In this document: positions 3,132 through 64,000 of the stretch, one piece after another
Layout of the letters: the number at the start of each line of letters is the position of its first letter
Numbering within the stretch: the first letter of the stretch is position 1
NCBI GenBank assembly: GCA_041650755.1
Contig: JBAZKN010000001.1
Location: forward strand, 70,796 to 134,795
Direction: 5' to 3'
Length of the DNA: 64,000 nucleotides
DNA from: Patescibacteria group bacterium
Lineage (GTDB): Bacteria > Patescibacteriota > Patescibacteriia > UBA1558 > GWA2-36-10
The notes under the pieces: model-generated
Databases searched by the model: none
What the model saw: only the letters and a program-made list of their open reading frames with translations
What the model was told of the DNA's origin: nothing
Position numbers and translations under genes: made by a program

Positions 3132-3893
3132 ATGAAAATAAAAAAATTAGCATTAAATTTAAAAGGCGATACATCAACTTTTATTTTGCGCATCGTTGGC
3201 GTAGTATTATTAGCAGCCGTTTTGATTATTGCAATTGTCAGGGATCGGATAGTCAACCCGCCGCAGTGGCAGGTATCGGTAGTTGGCCAGGGCAAAGTGA
3301 CCTTTGTGCCGGATATTGCCAAAATTAATCTTGGCGTCAGAGTAGACAAGGTAGATAGCGCCGAAGAAGCTTTAAAGCAGATTAATACCAGCATGGGAAA
3401 AGTAATAACAGCCGTCACAGCTTTGGGTATAGACAAAAATGATATCAATACCCAGAATTATGCTTTGTATCCCCAGTACAATAATGTTGATAATATTAGT
3501 TCGGTGATTGGTTATGGCGCCAATGAAGATTTATTGGTGACAGTCAGAGGGATAGACAAGAATAATGATTTGGTTGGCAAAGTGATTTCTGAGGCAAGTA
3601 AAGCTGGGGCTAACCAAGTAAACGGTGTCAGTTTTGAGGCCAGCAATTTGGAGGGTTTGAAGCAACAAGCCAGGATTTTGGCCATTAGCGACGCTCGCAG
3701 CAAAGCCAAACAACTCTCAAGAGTGATGGGTGTGCGTTTGGGCAAGATAGTTAGTTGGTGGGAAAATTATCCAACCCCGTACTATGATGCTAAGGGCGGT
3801 TTGGGAGTAGGCGGCGGCACCTTACCAAGCAGCATTCCGACTGGTAGCGGCGAGATCTCAATGGAGATGAATATTAGTTATCAAATTAAGTAA
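3132..3893 (+). CDS. SIMPL/DUF541 family periplasmic protein (26 kDa periplasmic immunogenic protein-like)
   Basis: N-terminal TM; VSVVGQGKVTFVPDIAKINLGV... and ARILAISDARSKAKQL match the SIMPL-domain pattern. Confidence 0.75.
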   Translation: MKIKKLALNLKGDTSTFILRIVGVVLLAAVLIIAIVRDRIVNPPQWQVSVVGQGKVTFVPDIAKINLGVRVDKVDSAEEALKQINTSMGKVITAVTALGIDKNDINTQNYALYPQYNNVDNISSVIGYGANEDLLVTVRGIDKNNDLVGKVISEASKAGANQVNGVSFEASNLEGLKQQARILAISDARSKAKQLSRVMGVRLGKIVSWWENYPTPYYDAKGGLGVGGGTLPSSIPTGSGEISMEMNISYQIK

Positions 3894-5169: not shown

Positions 5170-6387
5170 TTATTTTTTGAGATACGCTTCCAGGCCCAAT
5201 TTAAATATATGCATAGCTGTGCGTAGTTTGTCAGCTGACAAAACATAAGCAATACGCACTTCATTTTTACCTAAACCAGGAGTGATATAAAAATCTTTCA
5301 GAGGCGATATCAGGATAGTTTGTTTTTTGTGGCTAAATTTAGTCAGCATAAAACGAATAAAATCTTCAGTGTCTTTGACCGGCAGCTTGGCCACTTGATA
5401 AAAAGCGCCGGCCGGAGTGTTGCTGACAACATTGGGGATTTTTTTGAGCGCCTGATTGACAATTTGGCTGCGTTTTTGGTAGGTGGTCTTTATTTTTTTG
5501 GTATAGGCCCTAAAATCTTTGATCAGTGGCGTACAGGCGATTTGTTCAATAGTTGGTGCCGATAGTCTGATCATAGCCAGCTTTAGAGCAGCAGACATCA
5601 TCTCCAGATTGTAGCTGGCGATTATCCCTAGTCTGGCTCCGGGGAGGGAAAACCTTTTGGACAGACTATCTATTAGTATAGTGCGCGGTCTGGCGGCAGC
5701 TTGCTGTAAAATACTTTTGGCTCGGCCGGTAAAGACAATTTCCCGGTAAGTTTCATCAGCAATAATAAAAAGATTTTTTTGCCGGGCAATCTCCACAATC
5801 ATTTTCAGCTCTTTGTCTGACCAGACTTTGCCAGTGGGATTATCAGGATTGATGATGATAATAGCTTTGGTTTTTGGAGAAATCTTTTTTAAAATTTCCG
5901 TTTTTTTCGGCAAAGCAAAATTATCAGCTAGTTGCAAAGTGATGGGCACTAGTTTTACCTGGGCCATTTTGGCAAAACCGCGATAATTGGTATATAGCGG
6001 CTCAAAAACAATAATTTCATCATTGGGGTTGGCGACTAGTAATAGAGACCAGAGTATGGCCTCGCCAGCGCCGATGGTGGGTAGAAGATTTTCTGGCTTA
6101 AAATTAAGACCATAGGCAGCATAATATTTTTGCCAAGCAGACACATGTTCGACTAGGCCGCTGGAGGGAGCATAGGGGACTTGTCCGGATTTTATTTTTT
6201 TTAGTGTCTGAAAAAATTTGGGCGGCGGTAAGATATCAGGATCGCCGATATTTATTTTTAAAACCTTGATGCCTCGTTTTTCCGCCTGTCTGACCAGAGG
6301 CAGAAATTTTCTGATCGGAGAAGCGACCAGGCTATTGGTTCTTGACGATAGTATTGGTTTAGACATATATTTTTGTAGAATAATCAT
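5170..6387 (-). CDS. Class I/II pyridoxal-phosphate aminotransferase (aspartate / LL-DAP aminotransferase-like)
   Basis: ASPIRKF N-terminal motif; PLP-lysine context SLSKRFSLPGARLG; NPDNPTG motif. The track start at 6477 runs through the upstream terminator, so the start is more likely 6387 (MIILQKYMSKP) or 6366 (MSKP). Confidence 0.85.
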   Translation of the reverse strand: MIILQKYMSKPILSSRTNSLVASPIRKFLPLVRQAEKRGIKVLKINIGDPDILPPPKFFQTLKKIKSGQVPYAPSSGLVEHVSAWQKYYAAYGLNFKPENLLPTIGAGEAILWSLLLVANPNDEIIVFEPLYTNYRGFAKMAQVKLVPITLQLADNFALPKKTEILKKISPKTKAIIIINPDNPTGKVWSDKELKMIVEIARQKNLFIIADETYREIVFTGRAKSILQQAAARPRTILIDSLSKRFSLPGARLGIIASYNLEMMSAALKLAMIRLSAPTIEQIACTPLIKDFRAYTKKIKTTYQKRSQIVNQALKKIPNVVSNTPAGAFYQVAKLPVKDTEDFIRFMLTKFSHKKQTILISPLKDFYITPGLGKNEVRIAYVLSADKLRTAMHIFKLGLEAYLKK

Positions 6388-9385: not shown

Positions 9386-9793
9386 TCAGCAGGAGACGGC
9401 GAAGAAAGTCTCGATGTACTCGACAAAGCGCATGACGTTGAAAGGTTTGGACCAGAAAGGCACGCGATAGAGTTCTTGCAGGTGGCGGACTTGATCGGTG
9501 TGGTGGTGTCCAGTCAGGATGACCGAACACTTCTGAGACATCTCCATGTCATAAACCAGACCACAGAGCCAGCCGCCATCCACTTCGCTGGTTTCGGCGA
9601 TGATCACATCGGGGAATGGCCTGGTGCTGGCCAAAAGCCCGATGACGTCGACTGGGTGGAGCACCATCTTGGGGCTAGTGCTGCCCTTGGGCAGCACTAT
9701 GTTGGTCAGTACTTCGTGACCATTGCCTTCAAGAGCCTGGCACAGAGCGGTGATGGTGCTGTGGTCTTTGTCAAAAATGAAGATGCGCGACAT
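9386..9793 (-). CDS. Stand-alone atypical receiver (REC)-like protein with Glu replacing the phospho-acceptor Asp
   Basis: GGAGG RBS; IFIFDKDH (acid pocket), PDVIIAETSEVDGG (Asp to Glu), SVILTGHH (conserved Thr), WSKPF (conserved Lys); GC-rich. Confidence 0.55.
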   Translation of the reverse strand: MSRIFIFDKDHSTITALCQALEGNGHEVLTNIVLPKGSTSPKMVLHPVDVIGLLASTRPFPDVIIAETSEVDGGWLCGLVYDMEMSQKCSVILTGHHHTDQVRHLQELYRVPFWSKPFNVMRFVEYIETFFAVSC

Positions 9794-9971: not shown

Positions 9972-9980
9972 AAAAGCCAT

Positions 9981-10053
9981 TATGCCGGTTACGCTACTAG
10001 CTCCTAATCGTTCAAGCGTCCATATACAAACGATTATTCACAGCCTCATTTTG
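9981..10053 (+). repeat. Structured repeat copy B
   Basis: tatgccggttacgctactagctcct / AATCGTT caagcgtccatataca AACGATT / attcacagcctcatttt. Confidence 0.7.
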
Positions 10054-10133
10054 ATCCTCGATATATTGAAATGAACTTTAACAAAATACACCTCCCATTT
10101 AAGAGGCGTAACCGTTAAAGTCATTTTGACTAT

Positions 10134-10203
10134 TATGCCGGTTACGCTACTAGCTCCTGACCACCCAAGCGTCCATATACAGGTGGTCATTCATAGCCTC
10201 ATT
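10134..10203 (+). repeat. Structured repeat copy C
   Basis: tatgccggttacgctactagctcc / TGACCACC caagcgtccatataca GGTGGTCA / ttcatagcctcatta. Confidence 0.7.
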
Positions 10204-10269
10204 AGTGTATTATATTGTTAACAATTAGCAATATATCATATTACCCATATTTTGTCAATAGGGGATAAA

Positions 10270-30627: not shown

Positions 30628-31063
30628 GGCTTAAGCTGACCCTGTAAGCCGAATTCTGTCTAGGATGATCATCTATCTAGGCCTAACATTGCTGTTAAGC
30701 TCAAGCGGTTTACCCGCCATACACCATATGGTGCATGACCTACTTAACCTTTCACCAAGTAGAGTTTGCCTCTTTTAGCTTGTCACCAAGCTAACGTGTC
30801 TAGTCATTACCAGACAATTTCACCCTTATCCACCTAGGCCGAAGCTTTGGCGGAAGGAATATTTTCTGTTGTACTTGTCCTGATCAATGGGTCACCCCTT
30901 TGATCGGTTGGCGTTACCAACTACTCTTTTATCGGTGTTCGGACTTTCCTCCCCGAACCACTCGCTTTGCTCGGGTATCAGGGCAGAACTCCTGAAATTC
31001 CCTTACGTGGTTAGCCATTTACCAGAGCAAGGCGAGTGGTTCGCGGCGATCATCTGGGCCAAT
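30628..31063 (-). ncRNA. rnpB: RNase P RNA (bacterial type A)
   Basis: Minus-strand sequence contains GGAAAGTCCGAACACC (P4), AGGGTGAAATTGTCTGGTAATGAC (P10/11 region), ACAGAATTCGGCTTACAGG (3' P4 strand), and P1 pairing of ggcttaa with ttaagcc. Confidence 0.8.
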
Positions 31064-62687: not shown

Positions 62688-63737
62688 ATGAGAAATAAAG
62701 AAAAAGGCAGGATCTTGGTAGCTTTATCCGGCGGAGTAGATTCGGCGGTGGCTTTGTATTTACTAAAAAAACAAGGTTACGAGGTAGAGGCCGCTTTTAT
62801 GAAAAATTTTTCTGCTAGAGCAAATATCAAGGGCGACTGCCCCTGGAAAGAAGACCACCTAATGGCTTATCGGGTAGCCAGCCAGCTAAAAGTGCCCATT
62901 CGGACATTTAATTTTGAAAAACAATATCACCAGAAAATAGTAAGCTATATTTTTTGCTCTTACAAACAAGGGCAAACGCCAAATCCCGATGTCTTATGTA
63001 ATAATGAAATAAAATTCAAATTATTTTTAGATAAAGCTATCAAGCTTGGCTTTGATAAAATAGCTACCGGTCACTATGCTCAAATCAAACAAACAAAAAA
63101 TGTCTATCGCCTATATCGTGGCCGGGATAAAAACAAGGATCAATCCTATTTTTTGGCTGGTTTAGGCCAAGCCCAATTAGCTAAAAGTTTATTTCCCATT
63201 GGCCACTTGACTAAGCCACGGGTCAGAAGCATTGCTAAAAGGGCAAAACTCGTAAATGCTGATCGGCCAGACAGCCAAGGGATTTGCTTTATCGGCAAAA
63301 TAAATCTAAAAGATTTTCTGGCGCAAAAAATAAAACCCAAAGAGGGAAAAACTCTAAATACTAAAGGTGAATTTTTAGGCACACATCAGGGCGTTTGGTA
63401 TTATACCATCGGCCAGCGTCAAGGCTTAAATCTATCTGGCGGACCTTGGTATGTGGTAGATAAGAATGTCAAAAAAAACATATTAACCGTTGCTCGCCTT
63501 AATGAATCATCCCTATACAAAAAAACTATTAAGATAGATTCACTACACTGGTTAGGCAAAATCTATAAATTACCGCTTAGAGCTAAGGCCCAAGTTCGCT
63601 ATCGCCAGCCAGCTCAGAATGCCACTTTGTATAAGGAAAAAATTATTTTTACAGTGAGGCAAAGGGGGGTGGCTAGCGGACAAATTCTGGTTATTTATAA
63701 AAATAAAGAACTAATAGCCAGCGCTACTATAATATAA
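62688..63737 (+). CDS. mnmA: tRNA-specific 2-thiouridylase MnmA
   Basis: ILVALSGGVDSAVA PP-loop; catalytic Cys context CNNEIKF; 349 aa. Confidence 0.9.
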   Translation: MRNKEKGRILVALSGGVDSAVALYLLKKQGYEVEAAFMKNFSARANIKGDCPWKEDHLMAYRVASQLKVPIRTFNFEKQYHQKIVSYIFCSYKQGQTPNPDVLCNNEIKFKLFLDKAIKLGFDKIATGHYAQIKQTKNVYRLYRGRDKNKDQSYFLAGLGQAQLAKSLFPIGHLTKPRVRSIAKRAKLVNADRPDSQGICFIGKINLKDFLAQKIKPKEGKTLNTKGEFLGTHQGVWYYTIGQRQGLNLSGGPWYVVDKNVKKNILTVARLNESSLYKKTIKIDSLHWLGKIYKLPLRAKAQVRYRQPAQNATLYKEKIIFTVRQRGVASGQILVIYKNKELIASATII

Positions 63738-63759: not shown

Positions 63760-63781
63760 TTAGCTAATATTAGCCAAAATA
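63760..63781 (+). repeat. Conserved 22-nt intergenic motif, copy 3
   Basis: TTAGCTAATATTAGCCAAAATA, identical to copy 1. Confidence 0.6.
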
Positions 63782-63856
63782 TTGGTTATTTTTATTTTTT
63801 TGTCTTTGGGGGCTTGACAAATCTATTATTTATGTTAGCATATACAACTGCTCGGT

Positions 63857-63945
63857 ATGGGCGTAGCTCAGTCAGGATCCCGGCCGGAAAGAGCGCTGCA
63901 TTATCGGTGCAGAGGTCGCAGGTTCAAATCCTGCCGCCCATACCA
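63857..63945 (+). tRNA. Atypical 89-nt tRNA with a 13-nt palindromic D-loop insertion and nominal anticodon ATC (Asp codon GAU); isotype uncertain
   Basis: Acceptor atgggcg/cgcccat; U8; D-stem gctc/gagc enclosing agtcagg-atcccggccggaa-a; anticodon arm ctgca ttATCgg tgcag; T-arm gcagg ttcaaat cctgc; encoded CCA. Confidence 0.55.
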
Positions 63946-63972
63946 TCCGTTCTTCAAACAGACATAAGGGGA

Positions 63973-64000
63973 GCCTCCGTAGCTCAATTGGTAGAGCGCA
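63973..64000 (+). tRNA. 5' portion of a tRNA truncated by the window end
   Basis: gcctccg-ta-gctc-aattggta-gagc-gca fits acceptor/U8/D-arm geometry; the remainder lies outside the window. Confidence 0.4.

Follow-up and report, generated by a model that had tools for sequence, protein, structure and literature searches.

A tRNA-like gene of Patescibacteria with conserved stems and divergent decoding loops, probably no longer a codon reader

The gene at positions 63857-63945 (+) of the window (by which we mean the whole 64-kb stretch of DNA that was analysed) is 89 nt long, folds into a four-arm cloverleaf and encodes its own CCA. It also carries a 13-nt insert in the D-loop and an AUC triplet at the place of the anticodon. 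Taken at face value, a bacterial tRNA with such a triplet would mean A34/I34 decoding of Asp codons, or deliberate mistranslation. Three orthologous copies of the gene keep the stems of the cloverleaf and share neither the triplet nor the loops. On balance, it is probable that we are dealing with a lineage-specific tRNA-like RNA, confined to a small Patescibacteria clade related to Ca. Komeilibacteria, which is no longer a codon reader and which was probably retained as a processing module or a tRNA mimic. The AUC triplet and the 13-nt insert would then result from a constraint on the lower half of the molecule that is relaxed or of another kind, and would not be a decoding device. So understood, the gene would present a tRNA-derived RNA of a streamlined CPR genome, selected for its shape and not for its decoding loops and linked to structured RNAs that are unannotated. 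It would offer a compact natural case of a tRNA re-used as a structural or processing module, and an entry point to the little-known non-coding RNA repertoire of Patescibacteria.

Sequence, fold and D-loop insert of the gene

The 5' half of the gene reads, in order, ATGGGCG TA GCTC AGTCAGGATCCCGGCCGGAAA GAGC G CTGCA TTATCGG TGCAG, and the 3' half continues with AGGTC GCAGG TTCAAAT CCTGC CGCCCAT A CCA. The 5' strand of the acceptor stem (63857-63863, +) pairs with 63935-63941, which are followed by the discriminator A (63942) and the CCA (63943-63945). The "anticodon" arm (63896-63912, +) is formed by the stem CUGCA/UGCAG around the loop UUAUCGG (63901-63907), with AUC at 63903-63905, and the T arm GCAGG UUCAAAU CCUGC (63918-63934, +) has a canonical T-loop. 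All four stems are perfect Watson-Crick helices in the window copy, and the cloverleaf is also its minimum-free-energy fold. The first-pass annotation, which had been made from the sequence alone, was thus right in describing canonical arms, an encoded CCA, a length of 89 nt, and a UUAUCGG loop with an AUC triplet and G38.

The Rfam tRNA model RF00005 matched 63857-63942 (+) with 57.3 bits (E 1e-9, whole window), which is comparable with the 62 bits of the two ordinary tRNA-Gln genes of the window. The gathering score of the model is 29 bits, and the window copy and both orthologues described below (L006 and L015) lie above it, on the + strand only. The minus strand at 63857-63945 gave no tRNA match (Rfam, E<=10), in agreement with the earlier statement that the molecule folds on the plus strand only. 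The likeness of the reverse-complemented loop to an Ile(GAU) loop, to which attention had also been drawn, proved to be a coincidence, as the orthologous loops show nothing similar. ARAGORN, in its default and intron modes, did not call the gene; its low-threshold parses contradicted each other (Cys(GCA) with an 11-nt intron, or a 4-base anticodon) and were distrusted.

The D-loop (AGUCAGG...AAA, 63870-63890, +) is 21 nt long and retains A14, G15 and G18G19; in the RF00005 alignment, 18 nt stand where the D-loop consensus has 4. Directly after G19 lies the GC-rich 13-nt insert ATCCCGGCCGGAA (63877-63889, +). The idea of a repeated or mobile element was rejected, since the insert occurs only once in the window. 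It had been described as a palindromic mini-hairpin, and the palindromes are indeed there, namely GGATCC (partly) and CCGGCCGG, but only a short hairpin extension is predicted from them, of 2+2 bp or of 3 bp with a 5-7-nt loop. An 831-bp region around the gene is 100% identical in two independent assemblies, Logan SRR8542065 (L002) and ENA ERZ27247363 (L001), and therefore the insert is no single-assembly artefact. Hence an assembly error in the D-loop and a covariance score below threshold, both of which had been named beforehand as possible grounds for abandoning the original description, came out negative (two assemblies agree, and 57.3 bits stand against 29).

Stems and loops in three orthologous copies

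The comparison of orthologous loci, which had been proposed together with the original description, was carried out by walking the mnmA loci of 11 MnmA homologues for synteny. The MnmA homologues all belonged to Patescibacteria (CPR), with Ca. Komeilibacteria as the nearest named lineage (69%), and the window protein clustered in an NJ tree with P0002, P0003, P0004 and P0005. Two contigs of this MnmA clade were usable, each of them a single metagenome contig: L006, with the orthologue at 3231-3304 (MnmA 78% identical; RF00005 59.3 bits), and L015, with the orthologue at 2708-2796 (MnmA 72% identical; RF00005 49.2 bits). The DNA flanking the three copies is 72-77% identical. More distant relatives (L007, L010, L012, L016, L017 and L142) have no tRNA at the mnmA locus, and L139, L140 and L141 are too short to judge the presence of the gene. 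As for more remote sources, a scan of viral contigs with a family-specific pattern gave 0 matches, and a phage BLAST gave nothing beyond generic T-arm similarity to tRNA-Pro and tRNA-Arg. A metagenome scan with a looser family pattern showed no long D-loop among the 118 matches listed, which were mostly ordinary tRNA-Arg, tRNA-Val and tRNA-Ile genes, and the search for a parent isoacceptor among these 118 listed tRNAs gave no convincing closest type. We also noted human-gut metagenome tRNA-like genes with a truncated anticodon arm (12 nt vs 16 expected) in L039 (minus strand, around 1233-1287) and L043 (3425-3479).

Both orthologues keep the stems and not the loops. In the three-way alignment, the 23 proposed pairs are standard in every copy (69/69 stem cells) and no pair is broken, despite about 20% of the stem positions differing between copies. 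Four pairs are changed on both sides among the three copies (1-72, 5-68, 29-41 and 31-39); the first two belong to the acceptor stem, whose seven pairs are all kept, and the last two to the "anticodon" stem. Pair 7-66, G-C in some copies, turns to G-U. The Levitt tertiary pair 15:48 covaries as well, with G:C in two copies (window, L015) and A:U in the third (L006). U8, A9, A21, G26, A44-G46 and the CCA are kept across the three copies, the T stem is invariant, the T-loop UUCRARU varies only at R57 and position 59, and pair 3:70 is G3:C70 in every copy; the discriminator is A in the window and L006 and G in L015. When the 3' partners were slid by 1-3 columns in either direction, pairing fell to 35-55% and the double changes nearly disappeared. 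In a shuffle control, 4-21 of 500 shuffles reached the observed values, so the covariation statistics are weak, coming from n=3 orthologues whose relatedness inflates them.

The loops behave quite differently. The "anticodon" loop is UUAUCGG (7 nt) in the window, UUCAGA (6 nt) in L006 and UCAACGCGA (9 nt) in L015, and each of the three can close further, to hairpin loops of 3, 4 or 5 nt; for UUAUCGG, two extra U-G pairs could shrink the loop to 3 nt. The D-loop of the window copy stands beside D-loops of 7 nt (AAAGCCA) in L006 and 19 nt in L015, and G18G19, present in the window, is absent from both of these. At the insert site, L015 carries a different hairpin of 5-6 bp, which in the predicted fold stacks on the D stem to give a rod of ~10 bp and consumes A14, and L006 carries no insert. 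Only the window copy has AUC, and the three orthologues have no triplet in common. Because the stems are intact although about one-fifth of their positions differ, and the loops are unrelated, we conclude that selection acts on the tRNA shape and not on the anticodon.

Such loops might equally be expected of a decaying tRNA pseudogene without function of its own, which was among the candidates of the first-pass annotation. The decoding loops have degenerated differently in each of the three lineages, two of which have lost G18G19, and ARAGORN rejects the gene as a normal tRNA; decoding is seemingly lost, and that part of the proposal stood. The other part did not, for the compensatory changes that keep the stems indicate that the shape is still selected. 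With flanks only 72-77% identical, neutral decay would not be expected to leave 0 broken pairs in 69 stem cells at ~20% stem divergence, and stem-breaking changes at a neutral rate were not seen. Furthermore, four pairs are compensated on both sides, 15:48 covaries, the CCA and T-loop are intact in all three copies, and the Rfam scores of 49-59 bits are at the level of bona fide tRNAs at the same loci. We consequently regard a mere pseudogene as unlikely.

Another possibility is a functional decoding tRNA with the anticodon AUC, either a tRNA-Asp with A34/I34 or a mis-charging or recoding reader of GAU, whose elbow would accommodate the insert as a bulge on its outer corner. Considered alone, the window copy may yet decode: it still looks decodable, with a 7-nt loop, U33, a purine at 37, G18G19, a canonical T-loop, the CCA and a strong promoter, and the insert follows G19, where the D-loop is variable in length. 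Hairpin-tagged engineered tRNAs can also be active (PMC7590224). The orthologues, however, keep all stems with unrelated loops of 6 and 9 nt and without G18G19, and therefore the selected function needs no anticodon. A 7-nt loop with U33 and R37 is not maintained across them (7, 6 and 9 nt), a shared or synonymous anticodon does not exist among them, and the D-loops depart from the usual ~7-11 nt with G18G19 (21 nt with GG; 7 nt and 19 nt without GG).

The identity elements of the window copy point in the same direction. The E. coli AspRS identity set comprises G34, U35, C36, C38 and G73, of which the window copy has only U35 and C36, with A34, G38 and A73 in place of the others; these are the rules of E. 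coli, and the AspRS of the host may differ. G37 beside C36 is atypical, and an I34 reading of the AUC anticodon would extend to the Glu codon GAA, which I34 reads too. When 185,579 species genomes were scanned with a pattern for AUC in the tRNA frame of the gene, only 3 matches were returned, all of them unrelated, sporadic, normal-length G34A-like tRNA-Asp variants. Since the pattern was a narrow D-arm/T-arm frame and no full census, the scan shows only that the gene has no AUC-bearing relatives in that frame. A tRNA-Asp(GUC) was not found within the 64-kb window plus 10 kb, out of a genome that measures 250 kb or more; a normal one could exist elsewhere in the genome, because group I introns occur in Patescibacteria tRNA-Asp and may hide it (PMC13011429). 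Taken together, we consider decoding by this gene very unlikely, and the suppressor or recoding tRNA that had been envisaged, like a tRNA-Asp with A34, is not supported, with AUC not conserved and orthologue loops of 6 and 9 nt. The non-conservation of the triplet takes away the claim of AUC decoding, and it serves as a warning against calling recoding from one gene.

It had also been suggested that the D-loop insert might be an intron or another insertion requiring processing, the removal of which would yield a normal 76-nt tRNA. Taking out about 11-13 nt does leave a normal D-loop (AGUCAGGAU-AGAGC), tRNA introns are unusually abundant in Patescibacteria (PMC13011429), and the second tRNA of L006 has about 37 extra nt in its anticodon loop. 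An insert of 13 nt, however, has neither the length nor the structure of a group I or II intron (at least 200 nt and a core fold), no intron family was matched in Rfam (E<=10), and no bulge-helix-bulge (two 3-nt bulges, 4-bp helix) appears in the predicted folds. Bacteria are not known to have the archaeal splicing endonuclease. Of the two orthologues, the closest has no insert and an abnormal D-loop anyway, and the other has a different hairpin at that site; splicing in the D-loop would leave the anticodon loops of L006 and L015 unrepaired. Moreover, the introns described from Patescibacteria tRNA-Asn and tRNA-Asp interrupt the anticodon loop at 35/36; they belong to group I, splice themselves and have lengths in the hundreds of nt (Nakagawa et al. 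2026, PMC13011429). An intron in the D-loop is thus, in our judgement, extremely unlikely; to go by the sequence comparison, the insert seems to behave as a tolerated arm expansion, and not as an intron requiring removal.

Promoter, operon and neighbouring RNAs

Upstream of the gene, a sigma-70-type promoter was identified at 63814-63841 (+), composed of TTGACA, a 16-nt spacing and TAGCAT with an extended -10 TG (10/12 matches). It is near-consensus and ends 15 nt before the gene, so that a leader of ~8-10 nt is predicted, and the promoter and leader block CTTGACAAAT.TATTATTT.TG.TA is common to the window, L006 and L015. This conservation is likewise explicable by the downstream genes; in L007 and L142, which lack the tRNA-like gene, a similar promoter stands straight before a GC-rich RNA in the same mnmA-alaS locus. 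The gene next upstream is mnmA (62688-63737). Between it (greA in relatives) and the promoter we observed an AT-rich hairpin block, CTAATATTAGCCAAAATATTGG, with a T-run (63763-63790), which is kept in L006 and L015 and which is probably an upstream terminator.

Downstream, a 27-nt spacer (63946-63972, +) separates the gene from tRNA-Val(CAC), whose 5' part (63973-64000, +) is cut by the window edge and whose full gene lies at 11286-11361 of L001 (59.9 bits). The next tRNA had been correctly placed 27 nt downstream. The order on L001 is the tRNA-like gene, 27 nt, tRNA-Val(CAC), a GC-rich structured region with a terminator, a promoter, a second GC-rich RNA with a terminator, and alaS; no terminator was found from the promoter of the tRNA-like gene to the end of the downstream GC-rich RNA. 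We propose that the strong sigma-70 promoter gives rise to a non-coding transcript with the tRNA-like RNA first, followed by tRNA-Val, the GC-rich structured RNA and the terminator. Through its acceptor/T-arm half, its core tertiary pairs and its encoded CCA, the RNA would be recognised by RNase P and by the enzymes of tRNA 3'-end processing; it would be excised as a stable RNA of ~89 nt, and the same cuts would free the downstream RNAs. In such a scheme, the D-loop and the "anticodon" loop would be free to grow, shrink and change in sequence, and the simplest role of the gene would be to help in processing or stabilising the tRNA-Val and GC-rich RNA transcribed with it, or else to mimic a tRNA.

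Several observations on the surroundings may be added. An RNase P RNA class A gene is located at 30629-31003 (-) of the window (190 bits, Rfam), and its product belongs to the enzyme expected to process the tRNA-like RNA. The tRNA-Val(CAC) of L001 has the discriminator C73 and a U4-G69 pair; the discriminator of bacterial tRNA-Val is usually A73. The spacer contains the motif GTTCTTC (63949-63955), which in L006, as in the window, follows 3-4 nt past the CCA of the tRNA(-like) genes (3309-3315 and 3443-3449), and which also opens the L007 non-coding RNA at its 5' end (about 5393-5401); it may be a processing signal or the trace of a tandem duplication. The second tRNA of the L006 operon (3325-3438) has a CAUCC/GGAUG stem around 44 nt (37 extra), and the intron mode of ARAGORN parses it as tRNA-Gly(CCC) carrying a 35-nt intron. 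That insert is too short for group I, and the gene is either another tRNA-like RNA or one with an unexplained short insertion. Elsewhere in the window, tandem c-di-GMP-II riboswitch aptamers (9974-10057 and 10127-10210, -; 64-65 bits) sit upstream of a minus-strand ORF at about 9386-9793.

The GC-rich structured RNA begins directly after tRNA-Val (L001 11362-11516; window coordinate about 64049 on) and has a rho-independent terminator at its end. Both the closing helix (GGGACUG.GCUG / GCGGC.CAGUCUCC) and the apical hairpin AAGGA-NGGA-UCCUU are kept in L001, L006 and L015. A second unit of promoter, GC-rich RNA and terminator lies before alaS (L001 11520-11770; L006 3620-3870; L015 2960-3280; L007 5060-5680; L142 11040-11255), and where relatives lack the tRNA-like gene, one or two promoter/GC-rich RNA units are still found between mnmA and alaS. 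The adjacent GC-rich RNAs matched no Rfam family at E<=10, and these units may constitute a family of non-coding RNAs in this Patescibacteria clade that has so far not been described. We further found a small conserved hairpin, AACCAU...AUGGUUUUUUU (L001 11839-11868; L142 11327-11350), after the alaS promoter and before the start codon, which may be an attenuator.

GGAUCC is present at 63875-63880 of the window and at 11408-11417 of L001, and L015 has AGAUCU (2724-2729) at the aligned insert position; the shared motif could be a pairing site or a coincidence. It brings to mind a trans-acting tRNA mimic with a dedicated partner, which would serve as a non-ribosomal aminoacylated carrier, as a decoy for tRNA-targeting enzymes, or as a partner of the GC-rich RNA through GGAUCC. 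A conserved L-shape core and CCA with free loops would suit recognition by shape, and GGAUCC is shared by the window insert and the apical hairpin, itself invariant, of the RNA downstream. We nevertheless judge such a partnered mimic unlikely: the gene has no anticodon-independent identity element (G3:C70 and not G3:U70, no G-1, no long variable arm), its discriminator varies between A and G, L006 has neither the insert nor GGAUCC, and no Fem-, MprF- or CDPS-type gene lies within 10 kb on either side.

A bolder thought, to which we give a decidedly low probability, is that of an undescribed class of tRNA-shaped RNAs in Patescibacteria, founded by this gene, in which a hairpin expands the D arm and the "anticodon" hairpin is closed, and which would act in trans as a charged carrier outside translation, a decoy for tRNA-targeting enzymes or a partner of the GC-rich RNA. 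Alternatively, the clade might possess a pathway other than group I splicing by which short hairpin insertions are taken out of tRNA loops. Were such a pathway real, the D-loop inserts and the 37-nt anticodon-loop insert of the L006 neighbour would both fit. A tRNA-like RNA that is kept for its shape and has ceased to decode remains our preferred reading, and it is with this reading that we turn to the systems already known.

Comparison with known systems

With canonical elongator tRNAs (RF00005), the gene shares the 7/5-bp acceptor/T branch, the 4-bp D stem, the 5-bp anticodon stem and the 5-nt variable loop, as well as the T-loop UUCRARU, U8, A14, A21, G26, R15:Y48, the encoded CCA and a score above gathering. 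Unlike them, it has a D-loop of 21 nt with a hairpin-forming insert, and its orthologues have loops of 6-9 nt with no conserved triplet and can dispense with G18G19. tRNA-Asp(GUC) has U35 and C36 in common with the gene, and the sporadic tRNA-Asp(AUC) variants of the genome scan, from Arcicella, a Bathyarchaeia MAG and a Planctomycetota MAG, have A34 as well. Those variants possess an Asp-type loop (YUAUCAC/A) and normal D-loops, whereas the window gene has G37, G38, A73, an unrelated sequence and orthologues without AUC. The tRNAProX family of Streptomyces reportedly includes bacterial tRNAs other than Arg(ACG) with A34; these have conserved anticodons and a dedicated synthetase, neither of which was seen for the window gene.

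The intron-bearing tRNAs of Patescibacteria (PMC13011429) come from the same phylum and, like our gene, are missed by standard finders through an insertion. Their introns, however, lie in the anticodon loop, whereas the window insert is 13 nt long, lies in the D-loop and has no intron fold. The non-canonical bulge-helix-bulge introns of archaea are likewise short and include D-loop cases; the window gene, by contrast, has a bacterial host, no bulge-helix-bulge motif, and an insert that is absent or different in orthologues. Reviews and literature searches yielded no description of a bacterial tRNA with a D-loop hairpin insert or of a Patescibacteria tRNA-like RNA.

A last group is made up of tRNA-like modules, such as the tRNA-like domain of tmRNA, YrlA, the mascRNA of MALAT1, the tRNA-miRNA units of MHV68 and the tRNA-Other of B. 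cereus, whose shape is kept for RNase P, RNase Z and CCA addition and not for decoding. The gene bears no sequence or family relation to them; it has a full four-arm cloverleaf, and such a role can only be proposed for it by analogy. As to the tmRNA or Ala-accepting domain, G3:U70 is replaced by G3:C70 in the three copies. As to YrlA (RF02553, gathering 69 bits), the matches reached 24.6-26 bits over an artefactual span of the T arm and the D arm of the next tRNA. The prerequisites of a putative RNase P substrate are, on the other hand, all present, namely the acceptor/T minihelix, the CCA, the short leader and an RNase P RNA in the same window. Several of these modules are tied to another non-coding RNA, as the window gene would seem to be to its GC-rich neighbour. 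By analogy, then, the gene would appear to come closest in its working to those tRNA-shaped modules, such as mascRNA, the viral tRNA-miRNA units and the tRNA-like domains of tmRNA and YrlA, which are retained because the tRNA-processing enzymes recognise them.
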